64,000 nt of DNA from Minisyncoccota bacterium (GTDB taxonomy: Bacteria; Patescibacteriota; Minisyncoccia; Phycocordibacterales; UBA9973): contig JALOQM010000001.1 in assembly GCA_025453495.1 (NCBI GenBank), forward strand, positions 155,161 through 219,160, in the 5' to 3' direction. The translations under genes were made by a program, and so were the position numbers. The notes beneath the pieces are model-generated. The model saw nothing but the letters and a program-made list of their open reading frames with translations. It was not told the DNA's origin and searched no databases. Shown here piece by piece: positions 2,194 through 37,048 of this stretch; positions within the stretch are counted from its first letter, which is position 1, and each line of letters starts with the position of its first letter.

Positions 2194-2293
2194 GTATCTT
2201 AGTATATATGAAATACAGACAGTTTCCCATGGCGGTATTGATTGCGCTTTTGTCTAGTATTTGGTATGCTACTGTGCATTAATCAATTCAATT

Positions 2294-2545
2294 ATGCCAA
2301 TCACCAAATCAGCAAAAAAGGCGCTCCGTTCATCCCTTAAGAAAAAGATGGTCAATGATCGTGTCAAAAGAGCGATGAAAGATTCTATAAAGAAAGTCGC
2401 GAAGCTTGTCAAAGAAAAAAAGGCGGAGGCAAAAGAATTTGTCCCAGCTGCGTATAAAGCGATCGACAAGGCACTCAAAAAAGGTGTCATCAAGAAGAAC
2501 AACGCCGCACGGAAGAAGTCATCTGTTTCGAGGATGACTAAATAA
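2294..2545 (+). CDS. rpsT: 30S ribosomal protein S20
   Basis: MPITKSAKKALRSSLKKKMVNDRVKRAMKD... is a lysine-rich S20 signature; 83 aa from an internal ATG of track ORF 2261..2545. Confidence 0.9.
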   Translation: MPITKSAKKALRSSLKKKMVNDRVKRAMKDSIKKVAKLVKEKKAEAKEFVPAAYKAIDKALKKGVIKKNNAARKKSSVSRMTK

Positions 2546-2548
2546 CAA

Positions 2549-2579
2549 AAAGTCCCGCTTTATGCGGATTTTTTGTATG
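2549..2579 (+). terminator. Rho-independent terminator after rpsT
   Basis: Hairpin TCCCGC-TTTAT-GCGGA followed by a T-run. Confidence 0.5.
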
Positions 2580-2790
2580 ACTCCTCCACTCGTTCCTGCT
2601 TCAGCAACACTACTCACTACGAAAGAAAGCCGGTGTGGCATGAGTATTTGAATACACCAAATGGCGTATATCCGTGTTTCACAAAGACGGTCGGGCAAAA
2701 AAGAACACTGAACCGTAAAATGAGTACAGTCATAACAATAAGCGGAGCAAGATACTACAGCTTCTTTTTTGAAAATGATATACTTTTTCT

Positions 2791-3054
2791 ATGAGACACT
2801 TGTATGAATTTTATGGTACCGAATGCCCGCACTGCATCGACATGCGAACACTTGTTGAGAAACTAAAGAAAGAAGAAAAGATCGAAATTGAAAGTCTTGA
2901 GGTTTGGCACAATGATGAGAATATGAAAAAGCTCGAATCAATGGATAAAGATATGTGCGGTGGGGTGCCTTTCTTTATCAATACACAGACAAACAAATTC
3001 ATCTGTGGTGAAGCAAGTTACGAAGAGTTAAAAGCCTGGGCAAAAGGAGAATAA
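2791..3054 (+). CDS. Thioredoxin/glutaredoxin-like small redox protein
   Basis: 87 aa with a CPHC (CxxC) motif near the N-terminus; thioredoxin-fold-like length. Confidence 0.6.
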   Translation: MRHLYEFYGTECPHCIDMRTLVEKLKKEEKIEIESLEVWHNDENMKKLESMDKDMCGGVPFFINTQTNKFICGEASYEELKAWAKGE

Positions 3055-3088
3055 GACTTTTTAAAATATACAAAGTAGGCAGAAATTG

Positions 3089-3664
3089 TTAGACACTCTT
3101 TGCTGATCTCTTTTTTCTTTTTACATACCAAAGAATCATGACAAATGAGATAGTTGCTGTCGCGACCATAATACCAATGAGCGCAGTGAAACCAAATATC
3201 CCAGCGACAAAACCTCCGATAAATGCTGCGACACCTTGAAAGATGTCTTTGAGTGCTTCAAACTGCCCCCATTGATATGTCTCGACTGCATCTATTGTAT
3301 TGTCTTCAAGTTCAGCATCAAAAGCAGGGTCAGCAATTGCATTGCCAAGTGCAGCCAATACTTGCGCGATAAAGAGCGTTGTGATATTTGAGATAATAAA
3401 GTACGCTCCAATACCCACAAGCCAAATAAACCATCCGAAGGTAAGTAGCAAGAATCTATTTTTTTGACTCCATTGTAGTCGATGAATGAGCAGGGTTGAG
3501 ATACCTGAAATGATATAAAAGACCGCGACTGCGCCTGAAGCTTCAAGGATATCACCACCGATTTTTTGTACGAAGATGGCGTAAATTGGGATAATGATAC
3601 CTTCAGAGAAAGTTGATAGACCGTACGAGGAAATAAGAAGACGGAAAAAAAATTTTGATTTCAT
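3089..3664 (-). CDS. Polytopic membrane protein (MFS half-transporter-like, about 6 TM)
   Basis: 191 aa with several hydrophobic segments and a C-terminal KRKKRSAKS tail. Confidence 0.4.
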   Translation of the reverse strand: MKSKFFFRLLISSYGLSTFSEGIIIPIYAIFVQKIGGDILEASGAVAVFYIISGISTLLIHRLQWSQKNRFLLLTFGWFIWLVGIGAYFIISNITTLFIAQVLAALGNAIADPAFDAELEDNTIDAVETYQWGQFEALKDIFQGVAAFIGGFVAGIFGFTALIGIMVATATISFVMILWYVKRKKRSAKSV

Positions 3665-13343: not shown

Positions 13344-14195
13344 CTAAGATACATCCTCAAAAGAATCGTAACAACTGCGACACAGCCGAGCAATGAGATC
13401 GGAAGCAACATATTTCCCTGGCATGTTTTCAATCATCTCCGGCACTTCAAATGTATAAACTGCAAGAATGAATAAAGGATGCTCACCTTTATAAACAATT
13501 CCAACATCATTGTATGCATTACTTCTTGTTCCTGTTTTGTGAGCAACTCTGGCTTCCACGGGCAGATGAAATGGTAACCGGTAATTGATTTGTTGCATAA
13601 GTAGAATTTTAAGTGCAAGATTGCACAATTCTGAATCAAGCCCTATATGAACCGCTTCCTTCTCGTCGATTGATCCTTTTAAGAACCAATGTATCATTGC
13701 TGCCGCTTCATTCGGGGTAGTGACATTGGTCGTTTCAACTCTTGCGGGAGTATGTGCGGATGCAGAAAGATTTCCATATCTTAACAAGGTCTGATTAAAA
13801 CCAAGAGATGTAATGTATTTATTCAGCCGATCTAATCCAATCATTTCAACAATCCCACCAGTACATGCATTATCGCTAATAGCTACCATGGCGACTAGCG
13901 CATCATGCAAAGATATGACGCATGCATTAGGATCGAAATAATGAAAAATTCCTGAATTGTTATCCTGGTATTTTTTCTGAATAAAGAAATGATCGGTCAG
14001 GTTCAGTTTTCCTGCTTTAATATCAGCAAGAACGCAGGCGAGTATGAAAATCTTTCTGGTGCTTGCGGAAGGCACAATCTCATCACCAAATCTATTGAAG
14101 AATCCTCCTGTCTGAAGATTAATAAACGAGAATCCTATATGGAACGGCTGTTCGTCACACAAGTCTTTCAGTCTCTGCTCAAGGGGTTTTTCCAT
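13344..14195 (-). CDS. Class A beta-lactamase-like serine hydrolase (PBP/beta-lactamase fold)
   Basis: 283 aa with STRKIF (SxxK), AISDNAC (SDN) and AHKTGT (KTG) motifs in the canonical order and spacing. Confidence 0.65.
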   Translation of the reverse strand: MEKPLEQRLKDLCDEQPFHIGFSFINLQTGGFFNRFGDEIVPSASTRKIFILACVLADIKAGKLNLTDHFFIQKKYQDNNSGIFHYFDPNACVISLHDALVAMVAISDNACTGGIVEMIGLDRLNKYITSLGFNQTLLRYGNLSASAHTPARVETTNVTTPNEAAAMIHWFLKGSIDEKEAVHIGLDSELCNLALKILLMQQINYRLPFHLPVEARVAHKTGTRSNAYNDVGIVYKGEHPLFILAVYTFEVPEMIENMPGKYVASDLIARLCRSCYDSFEDVS

Positions 14196-22295: not shown

Positions 22296-22715
22296 TTATC
22301 CAATTACAATATTTTCTCCATTACCAAATTCCATTTCTTTATACATAATCTCGCCTGATTCATTCTTCTTATAAGGAAGTGTGGCGGAAATTACTTTATT
22401 TTCAGCATCCTCCAGATGAATAGAAATTGCACCATCAGTATTTCCTGCATATAGATTCGCATTAAAAGCAATACCGAAAGCATGTAAATCATGTTCTTGC
22501 TTTTTTACTTGGAAACTCTGCATGAGAGAATCAATGACTTCTTTTGGGGTGGGATGTTTTTCTAAAAAATCATTTTCAACGGCAACTATTTCATCTTTTG
22601 AGTTTAAATACATACCGAACGGATAAAATTCACCATGTTGGATTAGCATTTTCTGAGCAAAAGGAACTAGAGCGTTTAGTAACTTATCAAGTTGTGTGCG
22701 TTCTTTTTCATTCAT
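22296..22715 (-). CDS. Candidate immunity protein for the RHS toxin
   Basis: 139-aa ORF overlapping the stop of the 2042-aa toxin gene by 4 nt, the typical toxin/immunity arrangement. Confidence 0.45.
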   Translation of the reverse strand: MNEKERTQLDKLLNALVPFAQKMLIQHGEFYPFGMYLNSKDEIVAVENDFLEKHPTPKEVIDSLMQSFQVKKQEHDLHAFGIAFNANLYAGNTDGAISIHLEDAENKVISATLPYKKNESGEIMYKEMEFGNGENIVIG

Positions 22716-22718
22716 GTT

Positions 22719-25700
22719 TTATTCACTTGTGCCAGAAAGGGCATTACCAATATTTTTCAATGTCGACTTTACACCTCCTAATGCGTTTTGCAAAGGGCCT
22801 GAGAGACGAGTATCCGGGCGAACGTGTAAATCAAGACTATAGTTTGCGTCTTTCGCATAACTTACAAAATCTTTCATTTGGTTTGTGTAATTCAGACGTG
22901 CAACATTTTTAACTTCCATGAGAGATTTTTTTGAGTGATCCAATCCATCGGGTATACGATAGCTAGCAGTTCCAGTAGCGGATTCTATTCTTTCAGTATT
23001 TTTTACAATACCGCTGGCAAGTTCGCCCGCTCTTCCTTTCGCTGCATTTTCGGCAATATCACCTAATACTTTACCTTTTGGCACTTCTCCTGCGGTAACA
23101 GCGCCAAGTATTGCCATAGGATAGTTTCCTTGCTTTGCATCAGTAATAGCTTGAGAAAGTCCGTATTGGCCAACAGGCGTTGTAAGTGATTGCAAGAATG
23201 ATGTAATTTGTGGAGCATTCATTGCGATATACGCCGCAGCAAAAATAAGTTCTCCTGCAAATTTACCACTTGCATCGCTCATCGTAATCGGATTATTCCT
23301 TCCGTATGAATAGCTGTTCAGTGACTGCGGATCGCTCAGGATACTCGTCATATCCCTGCCCGACAGTGCTTTTGTCGGTTTTTCGTCACCAATAGTTAAA
23401 AATACCGGATCCTGAGAAATAAACTTCCCAACATTCCCCTTGTAGTAACGCGCATTCAAGTAATCGAGTCCTGTATCGTTGTCATGAATCTGCCCCACAT
23501 ACTTTCTCTGTTCATTATACGCCCCAGACGAGATGCGGGATTCGCCGAATGGGTAATAATCGAGTTGCTGAGAAATTGCACCTGAGGCGTCAGTGACGGC
23601 GGTAGTTGAACCGAGGTGATCGGTATGGATATAATACGGCGTCACTGTGACCGTCGGATTAGTAACAGTTTCGATCGTGGCGACAAGGGTGCTTCCTGCA
23701 TAGACTTGCTTGGTCTTCTTCGTACCGTCATCGTTGTAATACTTGTTCGGGTATGAGATGTCAGTCGTGCCTGTAACATAGCGGACGCGGTTACCTTCGT
23801 GGTCGTACCAGTAGTTTGCGGTCACTGAGCCGTCAGTACTCGAAACAAGCTGATCGCGGTAGTTCCAGGTATGCGTGAACGTGCCGTCTGACGTCAGATT
23901 GCCGTCATTGTCGTACGTGCGAGTAATACTGTTAATTTTTGTCGCAGCATGCGGATTCGCATACCCGGTGCCGGCATAGACGTATGCGCCCGCTGGACCA
24001 GAGAGCAGATTGCCGAGCGCATCGTAAGCGAATGAATGCGTGTAGTCACCGCCGCTTGCCGTGCCGGTAATGACAGCGTCAGTCAGACGATAGAGTGCGT
24101 CATATGAATACGTAGCGGTCTTTGCAGTATCAGTATCGGATGCATCATCAAGTTCGGTGATATTGCCGACCGGATCATACACATATGCGAAATCCTGCAC
24201 ATGACGGGTCGAATTCGTCGTCAAACGATTGGTTAGGCGGTAGAGCGCTGAAGCAGCATAGGTGTTCATCGTCGTCACGCCGTTCGCATCATTCTGCGTC
24301 TGGACCTGATCCGTCGGACTGTAGTCGAAGTTAGTAATGAGCGCAGTGAACGTGCGCGCAGACGGTTCCCTACGATCAACTGATTCGAGCAAACCGGCAG
24401 TATTGTAGGTGTAGCGAATCTCGGACATATCGGGATAGACGACTGAGGATATATTCCCCTGTCGATCGTAGAACGTGGACGTCGTATAGGTGTTTCCGTT
24501 GATGACCTTGATTTCGTTGACGACCGTGCCTCTCGAATTGTAGAGGTAGGATGTGTCCGCTCCGAGAAGCATGGTCACTGAGCAGAGTTTGCCCGTACCA
24601 TTCGTGCAGCTTGAGTACGAATACGCAATATCCGTGTCGGTGGTTGCAGTGTTGTCTTCCGAAGTGACCTGATTGACGTCGTTATAGGCGTAGTTTGTCG
24701 TCAGTGCGTTCGGACTTACTGTCTGAATAATGTTTCCTGCATCGTCATACGTATATGTCCATATGCCATAGGTTGCATCAGACACAGCGTGCGTGTCTTG
24801 CGCAGTCAGACGACGATCGAGGCCGTCATACGTGAAATTGCGGACGTTCCCGAGCGCATCGGTTATCTTCGTAAGTTTGCCGTTCAAATTCCATTCGTAG
24901 TTCGTGGTATAAGCGCTTGCAGTCGCATAGAATTCGTCGACAGCGGACAAGTTCTCATATGCGTCGTGATAATAACGCTTCATGTTTCCTGCTGGATCAG
25001 TGACAGTGGTCATCCAGTCGTCGTAGGCATTCGTCGTCGTACCAACTGCGTTCGTCGATGTGAGTACGCGACCAATTGGGTCATATGCGTACGTAGTGTA
25101 GAGCGCCGTAGTGGTTGTCGGTGATGTACGAGCAGTACCCGTGCTTGTATAGCGGAGTGATTCTTTCAAGGTCTTGCCGCGAGCATCATATGCCTTATCG
25201 CTCACGTTGAAAGTATTTGATGCTTCCGCTTCTTTGCGCTCCTGGATCAGGCGACCGAGGCCGTCGAAGTACTGATAGGTATCTGCCGTTGTCGAGGTGT
25301 CGAGATAGTCGGTGCGCTGTACTTTTACCGCACCGGAAGTGTCGGTATATGCATATGCCGTTTTTGCAACTGGAGAATACGGTGAAGTACTATCGGGAAT
25401 TTTTTCAGTGAGCACGCGATCAAGGCCGTCATAAACAGTTTGGTAGACGAAGCTGTTCTGATCGGTCACCTGCTTCGGCTTGCCGAGCGAGTAGTCATAG
25501 ACATACTGCGTCGTATGTGAGAGCGGGTCGGTAACAGTTGTTGGGTAGAGATTATAGGTATCGTATGAATACGAGGTTACCTTTCCACGCGGATCGGTAT
25601 CAGAAGTGACAAGACCATATGAGTTATACGCTTTCTGACTATTAATGTAGGTTGTCGACGCTTTCCAATCTTCAACCTTAGTCTGATTACCTTTGTTTAC

Positions 25701-28700
25701 CGATCCATATGAAAGCGTATCGTAATAGTATTTCGACTCTTTGACGGTGGTGGAAGATGCGTCAGTCACTGTGCTGATCTTTGGCACCACCACTCGGGTC
25801 GTCGTGTTTGCCGCATACACATTTGTCGTGGTGCGCTTGTCGGAACCGGTATCAGTGAATGAGCCGTCTGATGCCACTGCATTTACCCTACCCCATTCGG
25901 TCTTCGTCAGGAGCGAGCCGTCCGTGTTGTCATAGGTATATTCGGTCGCAGTATCGGCATGATCTGAATCGCCATCATACGTCAGCACAGTCTGGCGCGC
26001 GAGCTTCACGAAATCGTGGTCAGTGCCGATGTTGTAGTGATCCCACTTATTGACCGTCAGGCGATAGAGATTGTTCGAGCTGTCACGTTCTTCGACACGG
26101 TACGGCTGACCTATTTTTGCAGGGATATCGTTGTATTCACCGTTTGATGTATCAGTGCCATTACCCTGGTGGTAAAAGGTCTTCGTGACATTGCCGACTT
26201 CATCGGTTGTCGTGACGATATTGAAGCCAGCGAGCGTTCTATGTCCGTCTGAGTAGTACTGATACTTGCCGTCCTGATACGAGTACTGTCTCGTTCCGGT
26301 CGTGCCGAATGCGTCGTTCGTCGTGATGTCTTTGACGACTGTTATGGACTGGGACGGACTTCGGGTTATCGGATTCTTGTCATTAATAGGCTGTTCCTTA
26401 TATGTAATGGACATCGAGCCGCCCGCAGGAGCAGTAATGGTTGAAAGATAATCGGATTTTGAACCGGTATTGAGCCAGACGGCATTTGGGTTCGTGATGT
26501 TTGTACTGTTGTTATAGGCAAATATCCAGTCTGGTAGTCCGTCGTTATTTAGATCAGAAAGTCTTGTGTCATAATCAAATCCTACCTGATTTCCATTTGG
26601 ATAGGTTGGCATGGTCCAGCTTGCAAGTAGCCAACCTGTCCCAGTACTAAGCCAAACCTTGTTAGGATTGATAGTGTTTGTGTTGTTGTTATAAGCATTT
26701 ATCCAATCTGGCAGATTATCTCCATTAATATCTGTAAGCTGGGTATCGTAGGCAAATCCGACATGATTACCATTTGTGTATGTAGGCATGGTCCAAGAAA
26801 CTGCTGTCCACCCAATTCCTGTATTCAGCCAGACAGTATTTGGACTGGCTGCTGTTGGGGAATTGTTGTCATATCCATGAATAAAGTCAACAAGACCATC
26901 GGCGTTTACGTCAATAAGTTTGTTCGTATAATGAAATCCAACCTGATTGCCTGTTAGATAAGTCGGCATCGTCCAACTTGCTGATGTCCAGCCAGAGCCG
27001 GTATTCAACCATACTGCATTCGGATTCGTGGTACTCGTATTATTATTAAAGGCATAAATAAAATCTGGAAGAATATCTCCGTTTATATCCACGAGTTGCG
27101 TGTTTGTATGAAACCCGACCTGATTGCCGCTTGGATATAGCGGCATGTTCCACGATGCGTTCGACCAGCCCGATCCAGTGTTAAGCCAGACCGTATTTGG
27201 GTTTACTGTGCTTGTATTGTTGTTGTAAGCATAGATCCAGTCAGGTAAACCATCTCCATTGAGATCGATCAACTGCGTATTTACTGTATGAAAACCTACC
27301 TGGTTACCACTTGGATAAGTCGGTATAGTCCATGATGCTGATGACCAACCCGATCCATTATTGAGCCAGACCGCATTCGGATTCGCGGTGCTTGTATTGT
27401 TATTATAAGCATAGATCCAATCGGGTAGACCATCGCCATTGAGATCAATCAACTGGGTATTCAAAGTATGAAAGCCCACTTGCCCGCCAGTTGGAAATGT
27501 CGGAAACGTCCATGACGCGAGCGACCAGCCAGATCCGGTATTAAGCCACACAGCGTTTGGATTCGTGGTGCTCGTATTGTTATTGAGCGCATACACGAAG
27601 TCCGGCAAATTATCACCGTTTACATCCACAAGCTGCGTTGCGGAAGCGAACCCTACTTGTCGGAGGTCCGGATAGACAGGCATCGTCCATGACGCGAGCG
27701 ACCATTCATCATCCACAGTCTGATAATCGAATGACATCGCCGGGAGTACCGTCGGCGTGCCGCTTTCGTCATAACCCGTTTCGGTAATTGAAGAAAGGAG
27801 CGAACGATTCTGGTTGTGTCCAGGTAGGTATACAAGGTCGTACTTGCGAGTATTTGTACCGTTAATTTTTGCAACAATGCTCGTAACAAGCGAAGCCGGA
27901 GCGACTGAGAAAGCAGGATTATAGACAGTCACGACATCGGGGCGCGAGCCTAACGTAAAGTCGATTTCGAAAATTCCGTCAGTGGTTCCAAAACCAGTGT
28001 AAAAAATCTTCGATGGATAAATCTGCCCTGCGCTTTTGGTATATTCATAGCGGACGAAGTTATCATTCGTATCGCGCGTCTCTTCAAGCATCCACTTATA
28101 GATATTTCCCGAGTTGTCTTGGCGAGCTTGGGCGTTTGCACCGAAGGTATATTTCACACCCTTTTTATCGGTTACCACCCATCCGTTGGAGACGCGTTCG
28201 TATCGCAAGAAATCTCCCTTTTCAGAACGAGGTGCGTAAAGATTTGATCCGAGCGGAACAAGCTCCCCAGAGAGAGATGACGAAAACACATCGCCTGTCG
28301 TATAGAGGTCTTCCGTACCGGTGCGATTGACGCGCTCGATGTATGGAATATTGACGGACCAGCCGTAGCCGACGACAGAGTCGTTAACTTGATTCTCGCT
28401 ATTGTACATAAGCGAGAGATCAGGCGTCATGTCATTTCTGCCTGGTGGAACCTGAATCTTGTAGGTATGGACGAATGCCCCTGTCAGGTTGTCGATTTCA
28501 GGAGAAAGCAATCCTTTTGAATCCTGCGGCGGAAGCGGATCAGGATCTACTTCTGGCGCTTGAGGGGCTGGCGGCTCTATCGGCGGAGCTGCTTGCTGGT
28601 TTTCTTCAGAAACCTGAGTTTCAGTTTCTTCGCTAACGGTTGGCGTCTCAGTCTGTACTTCTGGCTCAGGAGTTATAACAGTTTCCTGAGTTGCTTCCGT

Positions 28701-28847
28701 ATTCGCTGTTTCTTCAGCGAATACGGTCAGGACAGGAGAAAAAAAGATTGAAAATACAAGAACGCATACCGCCAGCTTCCTAAAAAGACCGGATGCTGAT
28801 AATGGGTTTTTTGCGATATGCATATATTGTTTTTCTTGTTTTAACAA
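22719..28847 (-). CDS. Giant secreted SpvB-domain / FG-GAP beta-propeller / RHS (YD-repeat) polymorphic toxin (Tc-toxin TcB-TcC-like fusion) with a variable C-terminal tip
   Basis: 2042 aa. Signal peptide, then a Pro/Glu-rich linker, then an SpvB-like region (...GYGWSVNIPYIERVNRTGTEDLYTTGDVF...). About eight repeats of VDxNGDxLPDxxYAYNNNTSTxNPNAVWLNTGSGW (FG-GAP-like). Many YD repeats (YTYDALGN, YAYDPIGR, FTYDGLDRR, YTYDDAGN...). An RHS-core-like DYYPFGESR...YYKGNVGKFISQDP...NNPITMSDASGKF. A C-terminal domain of about 200 aa containing IPDGLDH...EVKNV, a possible PD-(D/E)xK motif. Confidence 0.85.
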   Translation of the reverse strand: MLKQEKQYMHIAKNPLSASGLFRKLAVCVLVFSIFFSPVLTVFAEETANTEATQETVITPEPEVQTETPTVSEETETQVSEENQQAAPPIEPPAPQAPEVDPDPLPPQDSKGLLSPEIDNLTGAFVHTYKIQVPPGRNDMTPDLSLMYNSENQVNDSVVGYGWSVNIPYIERVNRTGTEDLYTTGDVFSSSLSGELVPLGSNLYAPRSEKGDFLRYERVSNGWVVTDKKGVKYTFGANAQARQDNSGNIYKWMLEETRDTNDNFVRYEYTKSAGQIYPSKIFYTGFGTTDGIFEIDFTLGSRPDVVTVYNPAFSVAPASLVTSIVAKINGTNTRKYDLVYLPGHNQNRSLLSSITETGYDESGTPTVLPAMSFDYQTVDDEWSLASWTMPVYPDLRQVGFASATQLVDVNGDNLPDFVYALNNNTSTTNPNAVWLNTGSGWSLASWTFPTFPTGGQVGFHTLNTQLIDLNGDGLPDWIYAYNNNTSTANPNAVWLNNGSGWSSASWTIPTYPSGNQVGFHTVNTQLIDLNGDGLPDWIYAYNNNTSTVNPNTVWLNTGSGWSNASWNMPLYPSGNQVGFHTNTQLVDINGDILPDFIYAFNNNTSTTNPNAVWLNTGSGWTSASWTMPTYLTGNQVGFHYTNKLIDVNADGLVDFIHGYDNNSPTAASPNTVWLNTGIGWTAVSWTMPTYTNGNHVGFAYDTQLTDINGDNLPDWINAYNNNTNTINPNKVWLSTGTGWLLASWTMPTYPNGNQVGFDYDTRLSDLNNDGLPDWIFAYNNSTNITNPNAVWLNTGSKSDYLSTITAPAGGSMSITYKEQPINDKNPITRSPSQSITVVKDITTNDAFGTTGTRQYSYQDGKYQYYSDGHRTLAGFNIVTTTDEVGNVTKTFYHQGNGTDTSNGEYNDIPAKIGQPYRVEERDSSNNLYRLTVNKWDHYNIGTDHDFVKLARQTVLTYDGDSDHADTATEYTYDNTDGSLLTKTEWGRVNAVASDGSFTDTGSDKRTTTNVYAANTTTRVVVPKISTVTDASSTTVKESKYYYDTLSYGSVNKGNQTKVEDWKASTTYINSQKAYNSYGLVTSDTDPRGKVTSYSYDTYNLYPTTVTDPLSHTTQYVYDYSLGKPKQVTDQNSFVYQTVYDGLDRVLTEKIPDSTSPYSPVAKTAYAYTDTSGAVKVQRTDYLDTSTTADTYQYFDGLGRLIQERKEAEASNTFNVSDKAYDARGKTLKESLRYTSTGTARTSPTTTTALYTTYAYDPIGRVLTSTNAVGTTTNAYDDWMTTVTDPAGNMKRYYHDAYENLSAVDEFYATASAYTTNYEWNLNGKLTKITDALGNVRNFTYDGLDRRLTAQDTHAVSDATYGIWTYTYDDAGNIIQTVSPNALTTNYAYNDVNQVTSEDNTATTDTDIAYSYSSCTNGTGKLCSVTMLLGADTSYLYNSRGTVVNEIKVINGNTYTTSTFYDRQGNISSVVYPDMSEIRYTYNTAGLLESVDRREPSARTFTALITNFDYSPTDQVQTQNDANGVTTMNTYAASALYRLTNRLTTNSTRHVQDFAYVYDPVGNITELDDASDTDTAKTATYSYDALYRLTDAVITGTASGGDYTHSFAYDALGNLLSGPAGAYVYAGTGYANPHAATKINSITRTYDNDGNLTSDGTFTHTWNYRDQLVSSTDGSVTANYWYDHEGNRVRYVTGTTDISYPNKYYNDDGTKKTKQVYAGSTLVATIETVTNPTVTVTPYYIHTDHLGSTTAVTDASGAISQQLDYYPFGESRISSGAYNEQRKYVGQIHDNDTGLDYLNARYYKGNVGKFISQDPVFLTIGDEKPTKALSGRDMTSILSDPQSLNSYSYGRNNPITMSDASGKFAGELIFAAAYIAMNAPQITSFLQSLTTPVGQYGLSQAITDAKQGNYPMAILGAVTAGEVPKGKVLGDIAENAAKGRAGELASGIVKNTERIESATGTASYRIPDGLDHSKKSLMEVKNVARLNYTNQMKDFVSYAKDANYSLDLHVRPDTRLSGPLQNALGGVKSTLKNIGNALSGTSE

Positions 28848-28961: not shown

Positions 28962-29765
28962 TTATTTTTCCTCTGCCTTATTGAGTATCAGGGAAATCAT
29001 CGCGAGCGGAACCTCATAATCACGAAGTTCAAGAATATATGGCGTCTCCTTTCCATCCTTGAAAATATGGAGGCCGTCTGAGCGAAGCTCAAGCGAACCG
29101 ATCTTCTTAAACGGGAATGAGAACTGCTTGCGATAACCAAGATAGCCGACGCGCTGATTCGTGATATAGAACACGCCAGAATCCTCCTTGTCCATGATCT
29201 CCTTGGAGACGCTTTGTACGCCTATCGATCCGACGCGGTATCGCACGCCTTTCATGATCTTTATCGAACCAGTAAAGCCGCCGTAGTTCACGCGCGTGGT
29301 GACTTTCTTGCGCTTCATCATGTCTGCGGCAATAGCCCAATGAAGTACCTCGTCTTCTTTGAACACGACATTCAGTTCAGCTTGCGCGTTTTCGATTGTC
29401 GGCAATATGCCCTTGTCTACGAGCGCAAGCGTATAATACTTGTTGAAATTGTCTTGGTTGAAGGCGATGTCGCTTTTCGTGAGACTGAAATGGTTGAGCA
29501 ATTTCTCAAGCGCATTCTTTTCGTCATCAGTGATCCGCTTGTCTGAACCCATAGCGGTAAAAACAGAAGCGACCGAGGTCTTATGGATTGCTTTCACATC
29601 GTCATCAGACAAACCAAACTCCTTTTGCATTTCCATGAGTTTCTCGCTTTCATCGAAGGTCAGTTCACTATCGGCAAGGAACGCTGTCATTGACTCTTGA
29701 TACTTCTTGAGTCCATCCCGTTTCTTTAGGTACCGTTTAACAAATCCGGGTAGATGTAGTTTCAT
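28962..29765 (-). CDS. Hypothetical protein (267 aa) upstream of the RHS toxin gene on the same strand
   Basis: ORF; 3-nt gap to the upstream membrane protein gene. Confidence 0.4.
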   Translation of the reverse strand: MKLHLPGFVKRYLKKRDGLKKYQESMTAFLADSELTFDESEKLMEMQKEFGLSDDDVKAIHKTSVASVFTAMGSDKRITDDEKNALEKLLNHFSLTKSDIAFNQDNFNKYYTLALVDKGILPTIENAQAELNVVFKEDEVLHWAIAADMMKRKKVTTRVNYGGFTGSIKIMKGVRYRVGSIGVQSVSKEIMDKEDSGVFYITNQRVGYLGYRKQFSFPFKKIGSLELRSDGLHIFKDGKETPYILELRDYEVPLAMISLILNKAEEK

Positions 29766-29767
29766 GG

Positions 29768-30385
29768 CTAGTTTATCTCTTCAACCTTAACCTCCCAATT
29801 TATTCCGCTGATAACCCGGATGTAATAACGGCCCGGAGCGATATTGCGGTATGTTGTCTGTCCTTCTCCTTGTTCGGATCCTTCGGTTGAGATGGAAAGA
29901 CCAGGTCCAATATAGCCGCCGTTTTCCTTTTCTAGGCTTATGCTCGAGAAACTGCCGACTGTTGAACCGGTAGTCGTTGCAGTAACGCGTACTTTCTTGC
30001 CCGTGATATTGAAAGACTCGGAATCTTGATTGCCTTTGCCTTTGAGTGAATACACTTCCGTGAAGACTTCCTCTTGAGGTGCGGATTTTTCGCTCGTTCC
30101 AGATTGAGAATCAATTACTTGGCGGGCTTCATCTATTGAACCTGATACGATTAGGCCTCCAATGATGAGAATGGCCGCGATGACGAATCGCGCCATGCCG
30201 GAGAAATTGATCTTGAGATATTTCTTGGTGAGCGTGTTGACGATTGGCAATAAAATGACTCCGGCGATGACGACGGCGACATGACCACTCGCAAGACCTG
30301 CGATGATAGTAAGTACGCCAAGGACCCAGAGAACAATTGAACCTGCTGAGACTGATTTAACGGTCTCGTTGTTTTCGTTATGCAT
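29768..30385 (-). CDS. Hypothetical membrane protein (205 aa)
   Basis: Two to three N-terminal TM helices, then an S/T/G-rich extracellular segment. Confidence 0.4.
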   Translation of the reverse strand: MHNENNETVKSVSAGSIVLWVLGVLTIIAGLASGHVAVVIAGVILLPIVNTLTKKYLKINFSGMARFVIAAILIIGGLIVSGSIDEARQVIDSQSGTSEKSAPQEEVFTEVYSLKGKGNQDSESFNITGKKVRVTATTTGSTVGSFSSISLEKENGGYIGPGLSISTEGSEQGEGQTTYRNIAPGRYYIRVISGINWEVKVEEIN

Positions 30386-30708
30386 ATTTTTCTAGCGGGT
30401 TTTTAATTTGGCGGGAATAACAAAAGACTCCCCGCCATCGCGATGGAAACCTTTCGGCCCCACCCGTACCCGTTTCCAGGTACGACCCGCTAGAGTGACT
30501 CTGACGAGGAGTCTTTTATTCTCTAGCGGGATTTTCGACCATATCCTTGGCGCAAACCAAGGGGTTAGGTCTCCTATTAAGTTGTAAAGCGATTATACCC
30601 TTTTTATAGGGTCGTCGCATCCTAGCTCGGATTAGGGAGTTTGTGTAGCGTACTTACCAACAAAGTGGATTAAGCGGACTGGACTTCGTAGGCCTTCTGA
30701 GTCATCCA
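30386..30708. ncRNA. GC-rich highly structured intergenic region (candidate cis-regulatory RNA or ncRNA)
   Basis: Three copies of TCTAGCGGG (two direct, one inverted as ACCCGCTAGAG), giving two mutually exclusive 10-bp pairings, one followed by ATTTT. A further 10-bp pairing AAAAGACTCC/GGAGTCTTTT. Local hairpins GGCGGG..CCCGCC, GTACC..GGTAC, CCTTGG..CCAAGG. Much higher GC than the flanks. Confidence 0.4.
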
Positions 30709-31035
30709 TTGGGTGTGGATGATATCGAGGCGATCATAGACGCCGCCAAGCATTTCAAATACGAGGAAACCGAAACTGCCTATGCCTTTAATCGAATCTC
30801 GCAACTTGCTGACTCGAAATCAAATCTGAAACGAGCGATCAAAGAGCGCGTTCGGCTTTTGTATGCCGCGTATATCTCTTTGGCTTCCTTTATTCCCGAC
30901 GAGGATGTCGACTACATGCTTGGGTTATACGGAAGGCGTACACAAAAGCGATCCGCTAGAATTGTGGCGCGGGTGATGAAAGAGATGGAGGTGCTTGAAA
31001 AAGAAATTCGGAAGTTTAATCCTTTATCTAATTAA
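30709..31035 (+). CDS. Hypothetical protein (108 aa)
   Basis: ORF downstream of the structured region. Confidence 0.35.
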   Translation: MGVDDIEAIIDAAKHFKYEETETAYAFNRISQLADSKSNLKRAIKERVRLLYAAYISLASFIPDEDVDYMLGLYGRRTQKRSARIVARVMKEMEVLEKEIRKFNPLSN

Positions 31036-31060: not shown

Positions 31061-31945
31061 TTATATTCCCAAATCACCAAGGGCATCCTCCAGTAAAGGA
31101 ATGATGTCTTTGAAATACACCCTTAACTTTTTTAGGTCGTTAGCGCCATTTGCTCTTCTTTTAATATTTTCCCATTCTTTACGTAGTAAGTACTCATCTC
31201 CAGATAGATTGGTGAGGTTAAAAGACATCTTATCTATGATGTAACTTTTTTCTATTTTCTTATTTAGAAATATTACAGGATAATTTGAATCATCCCAGAA
31301 AAGGAGTTCGTAGGCTGTCGCCACCCCTTTCGAGCCGTTTACTCCCATAACAACTTCAGACCCCTGCGCAAAAAATCTATGTTCAAAATCCTCCCACATT
31401 GCTGGGGTAAATGATTTTGAATCCATTTCTTGCAAGAGTACATTTTCTATAAAGGATGAGAGAGTTTGATAAGCAAAAGTCACTAGTTTTTCGTCTCTTT
31501 TATCATCGGGATTTTTATCTGCGTGAAATAGATTATTTCTGACTTCATACCAGAACTCCACAACATTCATAAAGTCATTCTCGTCAGCAATTTTACCTTG
31601 ATTATCTAGACCGGCTCTGTGATGATAACTCGCATTATTCCACCAACCATTTCCAGTTGTCATCGGTTCTCTTTGTAGGTAGTTGATGAGGTCTATCAAT
31701 CTTTCTTTGTAATCTGGCTCACCATTTATAAAAGCAGTCCATCTTGCTTGATATGTCTCATCGTTTTTGAAATGTTGTATATACGAGCGTTCTTTTGTAT
31801 TCCCAGAAGCTACCTCGATGTCTTGTTTGGAATATTTATATTTTTTCAAAAAAGCTTCAAAGGCGAGATACTCAAAAACATATCGAGAAAAATAATCTTC
31901 TTTCGCCTTTTCGTGCCAATTTCTTATAAGGGAGATATCTGTCAT
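31061..31945 (-). CDS. HEPN-like (Rx4H) domain protein, possible Abi-type defence protein
   Basis: Probable start MTDISLIRNWHEK; ...EVRNNLFHADKN... matches the HEPN R-x4-H motif; AT-rich. Confidence 0.4.
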   Translation of the reverse strand: MTDISLIRNWHEKAKEDYFSRYVFEYLAFEAFLKKYKYSKQDIEVASGNTKERSYIQHFKNDETYQARWTAFINGEPDYKERLIDLINYLQREPMTTGNGWWNNASYHHRAGLDNQGKIADENDFMNVVEFWYEVRNNLFHADKNPDDKRDEKLVTFAYQTLSSFIENVLLQEMDSKSFTPAMWEDFEHRFFAQGSEVVMGVNGSKGVATAYELLFWDDSNYPVIFLNKKIEKSYIIDKMSFNLTNLSGDEYLLRKEWENIKRRANGANDLKKLRVYFKDIIPLLEDALGDLGI

Positions 31946-32169
31946 GTAAGTTGATCGCTTTAAGCATTCGCAAGGCAACTATATCATGCGTAGACAGGAC
32001 TAAAAAGACGATGGAATTTCTTGATTTTTAGGCATTTCGGTTACCAACAGCTACCACTCGGGACGCTCTGGACTCCTAAAAGGCATTGCGTCATTCATGT
32101 AGGTGTATGAACTATACACAAACACAAGCGCCATTAGGGACGACGGCCAAAGTAGTCGTTCCAATCAAA

Positions 32170-33438
32170 ATGAAATACTGCCTTTATGCGAGAAAGTCGA
32201 CAGAGTCGGAAGAGCGGCAGGTACTCAGTATCGACAGTCAAATCAAGGAGATGCTCCAATTAGCAGAGCGCGAAGGACTTGAGATCGTGACGATGAAGCG
32301 CGAAAGCCACTCTGCCAAGGAAACAGGCCAGCGGCCGGTCTTCAACGAGATAATACAGGAACTACATCAAGGAAAGTTCAACGGTATCCTGACATGGGCA
32401 CCAGATCGCATAAGCAGAAATGCTGGCGACCTGGGCAAGATCGTCGACCTCATGGATGCAGGAAAATTACACCAGATACGCACCTTCGGACAGACGTTCG
32501 GCAACAATCCAAATGAGAAATTCCTGCTCATGATTTTAGGCTCGCAGGCCAAGCTCGAAAACGACAACCGAGGCATTAATGTCAAACGTGGGCTGCGAAC
32601 CCGGGTAGAGATGGGCTTATGGCCGGGCATGGCACCGCTCGGCTACCTAAATCAGAAGATGCTCGACAGGAAGTGCCAGATCGCCGTCGATCCCGACCGC
32701 GCCCCGATCGTTCGCAAAATGTTCGAAAAAGTAGCATATGAAGGATGGAGTGGACGGAAGGTCTACAACTGGCTTAGATTTGATCTGAACTTCCATACCA
32801 GAGGCAACAGGCCGCTGACGCTCTCGGGAGTGTATCGAATATTCAATATGCCAATCTATTACGGACCATTTGAATACCCGAGAGACTCCGGCAATTGGTA
32901 CGACGGCAAGCATGAGCCGATCATAACTAAGGAGTTATATGAAAAAGCGCAGGAACAGCTCAAACGTGACAAGATCGTCCGAGAGAATCGAGAGTTTGCA
33001 TTCACTAAGCTATTTACCTGCGGTATGTGTGGCTCAGGCATATCGGCACAGGAGAAATACAAGGAACTGAAAGATGGCACGAATGCCAAGTACGTCTACT
33101 ACTCATGCTCGAAAGCGCGAGACCGAAACTGCAAAAACAAGTATATTCGTGAGGAAGAACTGATCGAGGAGCTACTTAAGATCATCGACAAACTAAACAT
33201 TAATGAATTAGGGATGAGAATGAAGCTTGAGGAGGAAATCAAGCGATTCAATAGACTTCAGAGGCTTGCAACGAAAGGAACGCCCAAGTACAACATCAAC
33301 GAAGATGACGTGAATACAAGAGAGTATGCCAAGTATGTGCTACGAGAAGGAACGCCACTTGAGAAGCGAGAGTTGATGGGTCATCTGAGGAGTAGACTGT
33401 TGCTGAAGGACAAGAAGATTACGCTACTTGATCAATAA
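32170..33438 (+). CDS. Large serine recombinase (resolvase/invertase N-domain, recombinase domain and zinc ribbon)
   Basis: Internal start MKYCLYARKSTESEERQ (catalytic Ser region); ...RISRN...; GINVKRGLRTRVEMG; Cys cluster CGMCGS...YYSCSK; C-terminal coiled coil. Upstream 32050-32075 carries TACCACTCGGGACGC. Confidence 0.85.
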   Translation: MKYCLYARKSTESEERQVLSIDSQIKEMLQLAEREGLEIVTMKRESHSAKETGQRPVFNEIIQELHQGKFNGILTWAPDRISRNAGDLGKIVDLMDAGKLHQIRTFGQTFGNNPNEKFLLMILGSQAKLENDNRGINVKRGLRTRVEMGLWPGMAPLGYLNQKMLDRKCQIAVDPDRAPIVRKMFEKVAYEGWSGRKVYNWLRFDLNFHTRGNRPLTLSGVYRIFNMPIYYGPFEYPRDSGNWYDGKHEPIITKELYEKAQEQLKRDKIVRENREFAFTKLFTCGMCGSGISAQEKYKELKDGTNAKYVYYSCSKARDRNCKNKYIREEELIEELLKIIDKLNINELGMRMKLEEEIKRFNRLQRLATKGTPKYNINEDDVNTREYAKYVLREGTPLEKRELMGHLRSRLLLKDKKITLLDQ

Positions 33439-36191: not shown

Positions 36192-36812
36192 CTAAAATTT
36201 TGGTAATACTGACACGACAACTCCTTGGATATGAAAATCATCCGTAAGAATTATTGGCTGATGAGTGGGGTTTGTCGATTTTGGCTTCAGCATTACAAAA
36301 TCACCTTGAGGATGATACTCCTTAACGGTAGCGTCATCATCTATAAGAGCTACGACTTTTTGACCAGGATCAGCTGAGGACTGTTGCTTCACCAGAAGCA
36401 AGTCTCCGTCGTTGATGCCAGCTTTATTCATAGAGTCGCCATTTGCACGAAGTAGGAAGTACTTTGATCCTGGCTTCACCATACTTACAGAAACTGGGAT
36501 CATAGCTTCGACATTTTCTTCGGCAAGCATAGGCGCGCCACAGGATACACTTCCAATCAAGGGAAGCGAGATGGTTCGGGCCACGATACCTTCTCTTAGG
36601 TCTTTAATGAACTGAAGGGTGCCGTCGGTCTTTTTCTTTAGAAATCCTCCAGACTCAAGTTCTTCGAGAAGCAACATCGCTGATCGAGGAGACTTATAAT
36701 CCAAAGCATCCATCAGCTTTCTGACAGAGGGAACCTTTCCGAAATGCATCACGTTGTTGCGGATGAACTTCAGGGCTTCACGTGCTTTTTGGCTTAACTC
36801 TTTGTCACTCAT
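36192..36812 (-). CDS. lexA: LexA-type repressor (wHTH plus S24 peptidase)
   Basis: 206 aa; C-terminal GDSM (Ser nucleophile) and a downstream Lys (VKEYHP); N-terminal HTH. Confidence 0.8.
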   Translation of the reverse strand: MSDKELSQKAREALKFIRNNVMHFGKVPSVRKLMDALDYKSPRSAMLLLEELESGGFLKKKTDGTLQFIKDLREGIVARTISLPLIGSVSCGAPMLAEENVEAMIPVSVSMVKPGSKYFLLRANGDSMNKAGINDGDLLLVKQQSSADPGQKVVALIDDDATVKEYHPQGDFVMLKPKSTNPTHQPIILTDDFHIQGVVVSVLPKF

Positions 36813-36830: not shown

Positions 36831-36960
36831 CTGTATACTTAAAAGTCAATAACGTAAAAGAGCGACACTGATCGCTCTTTTTGCTACAACCATGAAGCCT
36901 TGTGGGTCGCGCTACCTCCTTAGGCAGTCGGGATACAAAACTAACAGGTTGTCAATGCGG

Positions 36961-37048
36961 AGGAGGTGAGATTCGAACTCACGGACCACGTAAATGGTCT
37001 CCTGTTTTCAAGACAGGTGCCTTCAACCACTCAGCCACTCCTCCGTAT
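36961..37048 (-). tRNA. tRNA-Ser (anticodon TGA), class II with long variable arm
   Basis: Minus strand GGAGGAGTGGCTGAGTGGTTGAAGGCACCTGTCTTGAAAACAGGAGACCATTTACGTGGTCCGTGAGTTCGAATCTCACCTCCTCCG. Confidence 0.85.

Follow-up and report, generated by a model that had tools for sequence, protein, structure and literature searches.

The spacer between a minus-strand open reading frame (ORF, 29768-30385) and a plus-strand gene at 30709 raises the question of which of its strands carries an RNA, and what such an RNA may do for the genes around it. It lies in a window of 64,000 nucleotides, the whole stretch of DNA that was analysed here, from a metagenome-assembled genome of Candidatus Paceibacterota (CPR). 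A preliminary description, made by eye, had pictured the spacer as an alternative-structure regulatory RNA with mutually exclusive pairings, much higher in GC than both of its neighbours, terminator-like on the plus strand, and without a match to any known family.

The LOOT RNA on the minus strand

It is near certain that the minus strand of the spacer encodes a LOOT RNA (Rfam RF03000) at 30446-30571, and the family that had escaped recognition by eye is thus a catalogued one. When both strands were searched with cmscan, a match was found on the minus strand only; it covered the full model (positions 1-121 of 121, helices P1-P4) and scored 81.5 bits (E = 2.6e-15), above the gathering score of 46.4, and model R1, built in this analysis, gave 122 bits for the same core. 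Full Rfam scans of the window and 42 loci returned LOOT as the sole significant non-tRNA match. Helix P1 (30537-30571), with its conserved internal loop CCUAA / AUGG, and the A-rich linker GAAAAU that separates it from P2 (30531-30536) were located from the Rfam consensus alignment and the MFE structure, and are followed by two 3' hairpins with GAAA tetraloops: P3 (30465-30484), in which 8 of 8 pairs have changed on both sides among homologues, and P4 (30446-30461), placed by the Rfam alignment and homologue covariation. The window LOOT accordingly carries all of the family's conserved motifs, and the conserved-nucleotide columns were invariant in the 8 sequences compared. Across 11 aligned homologues, 97.3% of the cells in the core helices were paired and 26 of 31 pairs were compensatory, a pairing as good as this being reached by none of 500 shuffles, with slid controls at 30-46%. 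One helix of the Rfam model, the upper P2 helix, forms only weakly in the window and in the sampled clade (non-canonical marks in the cmscan alignment); here that region pairs instead with a segment, c, that lies beyond the model.

The LOOT family was described from ocean metagenomes, and to our knowledge no organism was assigned to it in its description. Rfam lists it under the type 'Gene; sRNA'. It derives from the Weinberg/Breaker ZWD collection, is depicted as a 'metagenomic-based RNA' in PMC7779021, and is absent from the main text of the 2017 discovery paper; our literature search found no paper on the function of LOOT, nor on LOOT in CPR bacteria.

Whichever strand is folded, the spacer region is more stable than its shuffles (minus strand, z = -4.2; plus strand, z = -3.0), and the plus strand does hold a terminator-like site (30497-30513, followed by TTTTATTCTC). 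Both points would suit a plus-strand attenuator or terminator, in which a hairpin at 30486-30530 with an ATTTT tail acts on the gene at 30709, but we find this reading hardly credible. The Rfam match is confined to the minus strand, and read from the plus strand the G·U pairs of the RNA are A·C mismatches. A terminator would also have no upstream plus-strand gene to act on, the flanking ORF 29768-30385 being a minus-strand one, and in all loci compared the element holds its conserved position relative to minus-strand ORFs. Since the RNA is on the minus strand, the ATTTT tail, which exists as such on the plus strand only, is irrelevant to it. The GC contrast also proved minor, the spacer reaching 0.483 against 0.471 and 0.453 in the flanking ORFs; the 126-nt LOOT core alone reaches 0.54, and the window mean is 0.43.

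Genomic position and neighbouring genes

Homologous loci were gathered into a comparison set of 13 distinct LOOT loci, the window among them. This sample is biased, as its loci were retrieved either with a single P3 sequence pattern or by way of recombinase homologues, and it consists of loci other than the original marine LOOT sequences. The pattern scan of metagenomes yielded LOOT in 6 of 29 loci and that of genomes in one of six (L005), the other five being chance matches (Cupriavidus, Acinetobacter, Eubacterium, an actinobacterium); in viral contigs, pattern GGGTCGTACCNNGAAANNGGTACG had zero matches and pattern GTCGTACCNNGAAANNGGTACG retrieved a single locus (L037) that contains no LOOT. 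The hosts are CPR/Patescibacteria (Paceibacterota, Saccharibacteria, Kaiserbacteria), together with IMG/VR contigs.

An ORF starts on the same strand 41-79 nt downstream of the Rfam match in all 13 loci. In the window, this first gene (29768-30385, minus strand) encodes a 205-aa predicted membrane protein (NCBI MCU0660176.1), the N-terminus of which is conserved in L051 and L089, and no Shine-Dalgarno sequence is visible by eye before it. The second gene (28962-29765, minus strand) encodes 267 aa, and the putative operon, beginning at the ATG at 30385, would comprise these two genes and that of an Rhs toxin. The 267-aa protein partially matches the PADLOC candidate-defence model PDC-S48 (E = 1e-11), and L060 has an equivalent 267-aa gene in the corresponding place after LOOT; Pfam, PHROGs and PADLOC otherwise gave weak or partial matches for this protein and nothing for the 205-aa protein, the 108-aa protein encoded at 30709-31035 and the 305-aa protein. 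Across the loci, the proteins encoded downstream of LOOT are diverse in size (168-403 aa) and unrelated to each other, and include membrane/secreted proteins, a Dam methylase followed by a PD-(D/E)XK nuclease, and a 252-aa protein.

Upstream of the RNA, a divergent large serine recombinase gene (32086-33438, plus strand) lies 1.5 kb from LOOT, and homologous recombinase genes are found 0.15-3.2 kb from LOOT in most other loci. The distance is 3.2 kb in L051/L080, and in L009 and L015/L025 the recombinase gene is absent within 1.5 kb upstream. Among the close recombinase homologues examined, about half lack a neighbouring LOOT; homologues without LOOT are those of L039, L040 and L042-L044 (scanned with filters off) and, further, of L053-L059, L070-L079, L081-L084, L085-L088 and L092-L096. 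In CPR genomes, this large serine recombinase family is itself very common and strongly conserved.

A -10-like box, TATAAT (30592-30597, minus strand), is located 20 nt upstream of LOOT and is abutted by the palindrome ACCCT-N6-AGGGT (30598-30613). Of 11 leaders, 7 have a similar TAnnnT box, often preceded by TGn, at 17-23 nt before LOOT; a consensus scan that also demanded a -35 box gave no promoter. On the minus strand, the terminator scan of the window found no terminator-like site between LOOT and the ATG, nor anywhere across 30300-30800, its two terminator-like sites being on the plus strand, which is not that of the RNA. By eye, no U-tract follows P5, the hairpin next downstream of the core, in any of the 13 leader sequences. 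The hairpin plus U-tract on the transcribed strand that marks an intrinsic terminator or attenuator was thus not found, and neither was the own terminator of a trans-acting sRNA, a result which bears on the functional label and not on family membership.

The Rfam model ends at P4, whereas the window and the 12 other leaders carry on with c, P5 and usually a further segment, d, up to the start codon. From the sequence we infer both the boundaries of the transcript and its nature: LOOT would here be the 5' domain of a leader of ~190-200 nt belonging to the operon that starts at ATG 30385, and not a free-standing small RNA.

Competing pairings within the leader

The lower P2 helix is formed by a 5' arm, a (CCCGCUAGAG, 30521-30530, minus strand), and a 3' arm, a' (CUCUAGCGGG, 30486-30495, minus strand). 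A third copy of arm a, termed d (A-CCCGCUAGA, 30391-30400, minus strand), ends 5 nt before the ATG and offers a' an alternative partner over 10 bp. The preliminary description had noted a segment near 30486 able to pair perfectly with either an upstream or a downstream copy, and this holds exactly over 10 nt, the two choices being a' with d or a' with a in P2: ACCCGCTAGAG at 30485-30495 is a perfect 10-nt complement of both TCTAGCGGGT (30391-30400) and CTCTAGCGGG (30521-30530), and the outer copies are embedded in a 17-nt direct repeat (30388-30404 and 30519-30535). With up to one mismatch allowed, CCCGCTAGAG occurs in the 64 kb as the three local copies and at one unrelated one-mismatch site (13739-13748), which argues for action in cis.

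To compare these segments between loci, concatenated arms were joined by constant artificial linkers, which keep a gapless register and are not biological sequence. The a·a' helix was 96% paired, with 10 of 11 pairs compensatory and none of 500 shuffles equal to it. In 9 of the 13 leaders, d is an exact copy of arm a over 8-17 nt and ends 1-5 nt before the ATG. Six different arm sequences have a matching d (CCCGCTAGAG, CCGACCAAGGC, CCGACAAAAG, CCGTCCAAAG, CCTATCAAGCA, CCGCTAAAGTG), copies of an arm from a different class are only 3-6 nt long, and the a'·d pair count exceeded that of all 500 shuffles, even with three d-less rows counted. The leaders of the window, L051 and L089 precede one gene family yet have three different a/a'/d triplets. 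When the LOOT core was searched for the segment that pairs best with the start region, the best pairing contained a'·d in 7 of 8 d-bearing leaders tested, the exception being L041. The remaining four of the 13 leaders (L009, L026, L038, L090) have no d, so that occlusion through a'·d cannot be a universal output; L026 is the sole one of these with a substitute, its P2 tip pairing with the Shine-Dalgarno sequence.

A second and longer competition involves this P2 tip, B (30496-30520, minus strand), which folds into a short hairpin (GACUC/GAGUC) with an A-rich internal loop and has ~21 bp of complementarity to c (30418-30442, minus strand). Segment c, antisense to B, contains the purine-rich GGCGGGGAG and UUUUGUU. 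A crossing 10-bp helix had been proposed for this region, and it is indeed present, as part of a B·c pairing of 18-24 bp that covaries in 13 of 13 leaders; its strands, AAAAGACTCC (30422-30431) and GGAGTCTTTT (30508-30517), are inside a 19-nt inverted repeat. RNAduplex gave -31.9 kcal/mol for the window (z = -7.2, 4 G·U pairs), and -24.6 to -36.7 kcal/mol (z = -2.9 to -8.1, 1-6 G·U pairs) across the 13 leaders, with a mean of -26.1 kcal/mol for B and c from their own partner against -15.2 ± 4.7 across classes. Its many G·U pairs make the helix strand-specific: read from the opposite strand, the two segments lose much of their pairing strength in 10 of the 11 leaders collected first and in the two added later. 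Given that c begins 1-4 nt past the Rfam match and changes in step with the P2 tip, the conserved unit extends towards the ORF. The 5' half of c has an alternative partner in the predicted hairpin P5 (c·c', 30409-30437, minus strand), with a 9-bp stem and a U-rich loop; a hairpin is predicted at this position in all 13 leaders, with differing stem sequences. A leader peptide, read as a short ORF from the UUG in UUUUGUU after the purine-rich part of c, was considered and rejected, its frame and stop not being conserved among the leaders.

Comparison of homologous spacers for covariation, as the preliminary description had proposed, has produced 13 LOOT loci, with covariation of B/c in all of them and of d with a/a' in nine. 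What stands of the alternative-structure RNA described there is the mutually exclusive pairing, reinforced by the covariation of d with the arms in six classes and of B·c throughout; the plus-strand and attenuator reading, the unmatched family and the GC contrast have fallen away.

Repeats of this kind next to a recombinase gene could also belong to the DNA, as binding, crossover or inversion sites of the large serine recombinase with the RNA structure as a by-product. Such a view would be in keeping with the presence of the gene 0.15-3.2 kb away in most loci, with the exact direct repetition of a and d over up to 17 nt, and with the a·a' helix, which is made of Watson-Crick pairs only and is the sole point of site geometry in its favour. 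Against it, P1, P3, P4 and B·c are rich in G·U pairs, GNRA loops accompany the core helices, B·c is much weaker on the other strand, and d keeps its distance of 1-5 nt to start codons and not to the recombinase gene, which is 3.2 kb off or missing within 1.5 kb upstream in the loci named above, just as LOOT is missing near about half of the close homologues. Known sites of large serine recombinases are imperfect palindromes of ~40-50 bp around a 2-bp crossover, and not 10-bp triple repeats. With neither a recombinase-tied geometry nor DNA-level symmetry found, and with the strand-specific G·U pairs and the fixation of d at start codons countering the suspicion that the repeats are simply recombinase sites, we judge a DNA-level origin very improbable.

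The Rfam type invites a different explanation, namely that LOOT is a free-standing trans-acting small RNA, to which the ORF position and the repeats are incidental or for which they mark an adjacent target site. Its compact stable fold and own -10-like box would agree with this, as would the lack of a single family among the downstream genes and of d in 4 of 13 leaders. We nevertheless consider it improbable, given that every one of the 13 loci has an ORF in the same orientation 41-79 nt downstream, that no minus-strand terminator follows LOOT in the window, and that the covariation of c with the P2 tip carries the conserved unit towards that ORF. In addition, d is present only at the start codon of the adjacent gene (apart from the one unrelated one-mismatch site elsewhere in the window), and a', buried in a 10-bp stem, would make a poor seed for pairing in trans.

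A proposed switch at the translation start

Based on the sequence comparisons and predicted folds, we propose that the LOOT leader is probably a cis-acting conformational switch on translation initiation. In Fold I, the Rfam fold, a·a' would form together with P5 and the small hairpin at the P2 tip; both d and the start region, A-rich and devoid of a Shine-Dalgarno sequence, would stay single-stranded, such that ribosome loading would be possible. In Fold II, c would pair with B over 18-24 bp, in a manner sterically incompatible with a·a', and the released a' could then pair with d and occlude the initiation region. P1, P3 and P4, which hold the most conserved nucleotides and two GNRA loops, would be unchanged between the folds and are the likely platform through which a ligand, a protein or the time after transcription may set the fold balance. 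Control of the ORF 29768-30385 at translation initiation is more likely than control by transcription attenuation, a candidate that we rejected on account of a P5 without a U-tract by eye and a window without a minus-strand terminator.

For the folds with a·a' and with a'·d, nearly equal energies are predicted. Between Fold I and the a'·d fold, the predicted gap is 0.4-7 kcal/mol across leaders (-77.7 against -78.4 kcal/mol in the window), and a nested B·c fold alone is predicted to be 0-20 kcal/mol less stable than Fold I. Fold II with both B·c and a'·d would be a pseudoknot with a near-zero linker between B and a', and its feasibility and energy are uncertain.

The proposed switch can be set beside known systems. 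In the E. coli thiM TPP riboswitch, the translational expression platform works with anti-SD and anti-anti-SD strands. The LOOT leader resembles it in that a' would pair either with a strand of the putative sensor domain (a) or with the initiation region (d), at near-equal predicted energies, but differs in what would be sequestered, namely an exact duplicate of the sensor arm and not a Shine-Dalgarno sequence, and in the additional exchange of B·c against P5, which is much longer. Further, while the 5' UTR position and the mutually exclusive pairings are those of a riboswitch, no ligand is known and the downstream genes show no consistent link to one pathway or transport function; their heterogeneity offers no hint of a ligand, unlike in classical riboswitches.

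The mRNAs of hok/sok-type systems refold from metastable co-transcriptional structures and are inhibited by long-range fold-back. By analogy, the local hairpins formed first in the LOOT leader may compete with a longer and more stable long-range helix that alters access to the start region, and LOOT, too, is an element on mobile DNA. Its loci differ from hok/sok in having no antisense sok-like gene, no small toxin ORF (the downstream proteins being diverse, of 168-403 aa) and no 3'-end pairing.

The immI operon of phage P1 has the layout a1/b1 - c4 - a2/b2, and this parallel suggests that LOOT might be a c4-like antisense RNA, as in phages P1 and P7, which is cut from its own leader and uses a' and the P2 tip to bind d and c in mRNAs of the same element. 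In both cases repeats flank an RNA that carries their complements (a, a', d; and b', b, c, where b' and b are the 3' and 5' strands of the tip hairpin), the last repeat is at the translation start of the next gene, in c4 its ribosome binding region, and the elements are mobile or prophage-like. Yet c and d do not follow one another on the target in the order that colinearity with B and a' on LOOT would require, so that no single continuous antisense duplex could form, both pairing segments are within helices of the LOOT fold, and the Rfam scans of the window and 42 loci gave no significant non-tRNA match besides LOOT. We therefore think a c4-like role unlikely, and somewhat more so than action as a free-standing sRNA.

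Returning to the cis-acting switch, its broadest form may be put forward tentatively: instead of an sRNA, LOOT could be the sensor domain of an unrecognised class of cis-acting RNA switches, be it a riboswitch that responds to a ligand or protein or a co-transcriptional 'timer', and this switch would gate the translation of the first downstream gene in integrative elements of CPR/Patescibacteria with a large serine recombinase, by a double strand exchange from P2 and P5 to B·c and a'·d. We would thereby also infer an effect on translation and a signal to which it responds. If the family assignment alone holds, the finding amounts to one more ordinary example of a catalogued motif.

Many structured RNAs are orphans for which there is nothing more than a covariance model built from metagenomes, and LOOT belongs among them. 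To this, our analysis adds hosts in the CPR/Patescibacteria, a niche that is often beside a large serine recombinase gene, and the proposal of a bistable leader with a hairpin arm duplicated at the start codon, for which compensatory mutations can be designed from the long B·c helix and from the joint covariation of a, a' and d. If the switch holds in its broadest form, the exact copy of the P2 arm at a start codon would be a simple predictor of the gene that each LOOT controls. If the mechanism is true, other Rfam 'sRNA' motifs would be worth rechecking for missed 3' expression platforms, and LOOT would represent a rare case of RNA-based gene control in CPR bacteria, the regulation of which is almost unknown.

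A LOOT RNA in the spacer

The spacer at 30386-30708 is bordered by a 205-aa ORF on the minus strand (29768-30385) and a 108-aa ORF on the plus strand (30709-31035), both of which match public gene calls (the contig is JGI Ga0392395_0000052). Scanning both strands against Rfam 15, a check proposed in the preliminary description, returned one strong match, on the minus strand at 30446-30571, to the LOOT RNA (RF03000). It scores 81.5 bits, the gathering score being 46.4, and spans the whole model (positions 1-121 of 121). The feature is real, and its family is already catalogued. LOOT is a motif derived from metagenomes in the Weinberg/Breaker collection (PMC7779021), and is typed by Rfam as "Gene; sRNA". 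Our literature search found no paper on its function, and one methods paper has remarked on its unusual "cross-covariations". Along the minus strand, the RNA consists of P1 (30571-30537), an A-rich linker, a lower P2 built from arms a (30530-30521) and a' (30495-30486), the P2 tip B (30520-30496), P3 (30484-30465) and P4 (30461-30446), the last two capped by GAAA loops, and folding of the minus-strand RNA gave z = -4.2.

The preliminary description had proposed mutually exclusive 10-bp pairings, and these are exact: ACCCGCTAGAG at 30485-30495 is complementary over 10 nt to both TCTAGCGGGT (30391-30400) and CTCTAGCGGG (30521-30530), the latter "downstream" pairing being lower P2. The outer copies are parts of a 17-nt direct repeat, and the crossing pair AAAAGACTCC (30422-30431) / GGAGTCTTTT (30508-30517) is found inside a 19-nt inverted repeat. 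Allowing one mismatch, the 10-mer occurs only at the three spacer sites and one unrelated site in the whole 64 kb. The spacer had also been described as much richer in GC than its neighbors, which it is not (0.483 vs 0.471 and 0.453 in the flanking ORFs); only the 126-nt core reaches 0.54.

Conserved pairings beyond the Rfam match

Pattern scans and recombinase-guided look-ups yielded 13 distinct LOOT leaders, i.e. the window and 12 others, each of which matches Rfam LOOT or our own model (R1). These are L005 (a Candidatus Saccharibacteria metagenome-assembled genome), L009, L015 (identical to L028), L025, L026, L031, L038 and L041 (both IMG/VR viral contigs), L051 (identical to L052 and to L080, which comes from NCBI assembly GCA_001781215.1 and whose recombinase bait is named as Candidatus Kaiserbacteria), L060 (one LOOT match of 69.7 bits common to L060 through L068), L089, and L090 (same match as L091). 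The sample is biased (one P3 sequence and recombinase neighbors), and the extension described below is claimed for these leaders. When 11 cores were aligned to the model, 97.3% of cells paired and both sides changed in 26 of 31 pairs, which was reached by 0 of 500 shuffles, with slid controls at 30-46%.

The crossing helix exists as well, at 18-24 bp rather than the 10 bp first described, as the P2 tip B is antisense over its full length (20-25 nt) to a segment, c, beginning 1-4 nt past the Rfam match. B·c is found in all 13 leaders (-24.6 to -36.7 kcal/mol; z = -2.9 to -8.1 against shuffles; 1-6 G·U pairs per helix), and its mean energy is -26.1 kcal/mol with a leader's own c vs -15.2 ± 4.7 with the c of other classes. 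On the opposite strand the B/c pairing is much weaker in all but one of the first 11 leaders and in the two found later (window -22.9 vs -31.9 kcal/mol on the LOOT strand), so the constraint acts on LOOT-strand RNA. This weaker pairing, together with the minus-strand LOOT match, led us to reject the plus-strand terminator initially read into the spacer. Two terminator-like hairpins with T-tracts do occur on that strand, one (30347-30368) inside the 5' end of the minus-strand ORF and one (30497-30513) being the complement of the P2 tip. Both are probably by-products of no significance, but could provide a stop for antisense transcription. P5, a local hairpin between the 5' half of c and a strand further downstream, is likewise formed in all 13 leaders, with variable stem sequences and a U-rich loop.

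The "upstream" partner first noted for a' is d, a third copy of arm a directly in front of the start codon. Nine of 13 leaders have an exact copy (8-17 nt) that stops 1-5 nt short of the ATG, and in each of six arm classes d matches its own arm (CCCGCTAGAG in the window, L005 and L031; CCGACCAAGGC in L015 and L025; CCGACAAAAG in L041; CCGTCCAAAG in L051; CCTATCAAGCA in L060; CCGCTAAAGTG in L089), with just 3-6 nt copies of an arm being held by leaders of other classes. Although the window, L051 and L089 have a downstream gene in common (N-termini MHNENNETVKSVSAGSIVLW, MNNENTEAVKSVSAGSIVLW and MNNESNETVKSVSAGSIVLW), each has an a/a'/d triplet of its own. In a gapless alignment (A7) in which artificial linkers connect the a, a' and d segments of 11 nt each, a·a' shows 96% pairing and compensatory changes at 10 of 11 pairs, and a'·d is 69.7% paired (three leaders without d included) vs 53.3% in shuffles, a level reached by 0 of 500; since the d windows were picked by similarity to a, the cross-class control is the fairer test. 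Where d is present, the stretch leading up to the ATG is A-rich and no Shine-Dalgarno sequence is visible. A visible Shine-Dalgarno-like stretch is present in three of the four leaders without d (L026 GAGGAG, L090 AAGGA, L038 TAGGA), and that of L026 is complementary to the P2 tip (9 bp, -15.2 kcal/mol).

Across nine distinct sequences in A7, a·a' (30486-30495 / 30521-30530) contains Watson-Crick pairs only, unlike P1, P3, P4 and B·c with their many G·U pairs. It may be that a and d have to serve a' equally well as partners, or that a constraint lies in the DNA. If the repeats were a recombinase site in DNA, the absence of G·U from a·a' would be accommodated, but the strand-specific G·U pairs elsewhere speak against that reading, as does the link between d and start codons.

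A same-strand ORF starts 41-79 nt past the Rfam match in 13 of 13 leaders, and in the window the minus strand shows no terminator-like site from LOOT to the ATG. The free-standing sRNA implied by the Rfam label therefore fits poorly, with a co-oriented ORF invariably following, a terminator missing, and conservation running on into c and d. A processed antisense RNA like c4 of phage P1 is another rival, as c4 has the same repeat-complement-repeat layout as the LOOT leader; here, however, the pairing segments are not colinear and lie inside helices. In the window a -10-like box, TATAAT (30597-30592), stands 20 nt upstream of LOOT, and such a box, often TGnTAnnAT, is found 17-23 nt upstream in 7 of 11 leaders; no promoter emerged from a consensus scan in which a -35 box was required as well. 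The -10-like box is abutted or overlapped by a short palindrome in the window (30598-30613, ACCCT-N6-AGGGT), L005, L038 and L089 (both GATAGC-N5-7-GCTATC), and L051 and L060 (both ATACCA-N7-TGGTAT). The palindrome could serve as an operator or, with an earlier transcription start, as an additional 5' hairpin.

Genes and mobile elements around LOOT

The contig's arginyl-tRNA synthetase (MCU0660215.1) and the 205-aa ORF (MCU0660176.1) are identical to proteins of a metagenome-assembled genome labelled Candidatus Pacebacteria/Paceibacterota. On its own strand, LOOT is followed by the 205-aa membrane protein, a 267-aa protein (28962-29765, minus), a 2042-aa Rhs/YD-repeat polymorphic toxin (22719-28847, minus; SpvB, FG-GAP, RHS repeats and a C-terminal Tox-REase-7 nuclease domain) and a 139-aa ORF (22296-22715, minus; no family match), possibly the immunity protein of the toxin; these last two share the orientation of the LOOT-led genes. 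The 267-aa protein has a partial match to the PADLOC candidate defence model PDC-S48 (~85 aa, E = 1e-11 to 1e-12) and a weak one to TerB, and the same succession of membrane protein and 267-aa protein recurs after LOOT in L060 (267-aa gene at 2138-2941, minus), with a 265-aa version in L080. Overall, the proteins downstream of LOOT are unrelated, including small membrane or secreted proteins, a 252-aa uncharacterised protein, and a D12 Dam methylase followed by a PD-(D/E)XK nuclease. The latter restriction-modification pair is led by LOOT in L015 (6200-7500; D12-class Dam methylase, 2e-63, then PDDEXK_11 nuclease, 2e-39), L025 and L028, where a 386-aa uncharacterised protein takes the place of the recombinase divergently upstream.

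Upstream of LOOT in the window, and divergent from it, come the 108-aa ORF, then an ORF of 305 aa with low GC, and then the gene for a large serine recombinase (32086-33438, plus). The 305-aa ORF (31061-31978, minus; GC 0.31-0.41 vs ~0.47 around it) has a weak PADLOC DzbB match (3e-4) and no other, and looks like separately acquired DNA. A LexA-like repressor (36192-36812, minus; Peptidase_S24 and LexA DNA-binding domain) and an adjoining tRNA-Ser gene (36957-37044, minus) lie 2.8 kb past the recombinase gene. Among loci found without recombinase bait, the window, L005, L026 and L031 have a large serine recombinase gene no more than 1.6 kb away, and L009 and L015/L025 do not. At E < 1e-60 there are at least 7,999 relatives of the window recombinase, a lower bound as only 8,000 candidates were scored; the best 120 of these are 74-95% identical, and the organism-named ones among those 120 belong to Nomura-, Uhr-, Kaiser- and Paceibacteria, which are different CPR classes. 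Such conservation is striking for a mobile-element gene. LOOT was 0.17-3.2 kb away in 5 of 10 recombinase homologues examined. In two IMG/VR contigs without LOOT, a tRNA gene directly follows the recombinase 3' end (L039 5451-5525; L043 5457-5511), which suggests integration at tRNA genes, and L090 contains a terminase-like gene; the recombinase-bearing elements look integrative and partly prophage-like. At L083, which has a close recombinase homologue and no LOOT, a bAvd accessory-variability-determinant-like gene and a reverse transcriptase fragment (RVT_1) at 2163-3609 suggest a diversity-generating retroelement.

A proposed switch on translation initiation

Because B is directly joined to a and a', a B·c helix of ~20 bp is incompatible with the 10-bp a·a' stem (an exclusion argued from geometry, not computed), so the leader has at least two folds of conserved, covarying pairings. 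Fold I would comprise a·a', a small tip hairpin and P5, leaving d free, and in Fold II B·c would form and the freed a' would pair with d. Under constrained folding, Fold I and the nested a'·d fold are 0.4-7 kcal/mol apart (window -77.7 and -78.4 kcal/mol), and B·c plus a'·d, with no pseudoknot penalty, falls below Fold I in all eight leaders tested (window -94.5 kcal/mol). The strongest partner of the start region in the LOOT core contains a'·d in seven of eight d-bearing leaders tested, the exception being L041.

The leader is best read as a cis-acting switch on translation initiation. Covariation, positions and computed energies are what the data show; we infer the transcript boundaries, the effect on translation and the signal. 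Fold I would be the first to form during transcription and would permit initiation, and Fold II would block it, with P1, P3 and P4 constant between folds; it is at these helices that the balance would be set, by a ligand, a protein or slow refolding. To judge from the papers searched, neither the 3' extension nor the three-way covariation seems to have been described before, and with them an orphan "sRNA" becomes a cis-regulatory leader, found in CPR mobile elements, that can be tested.
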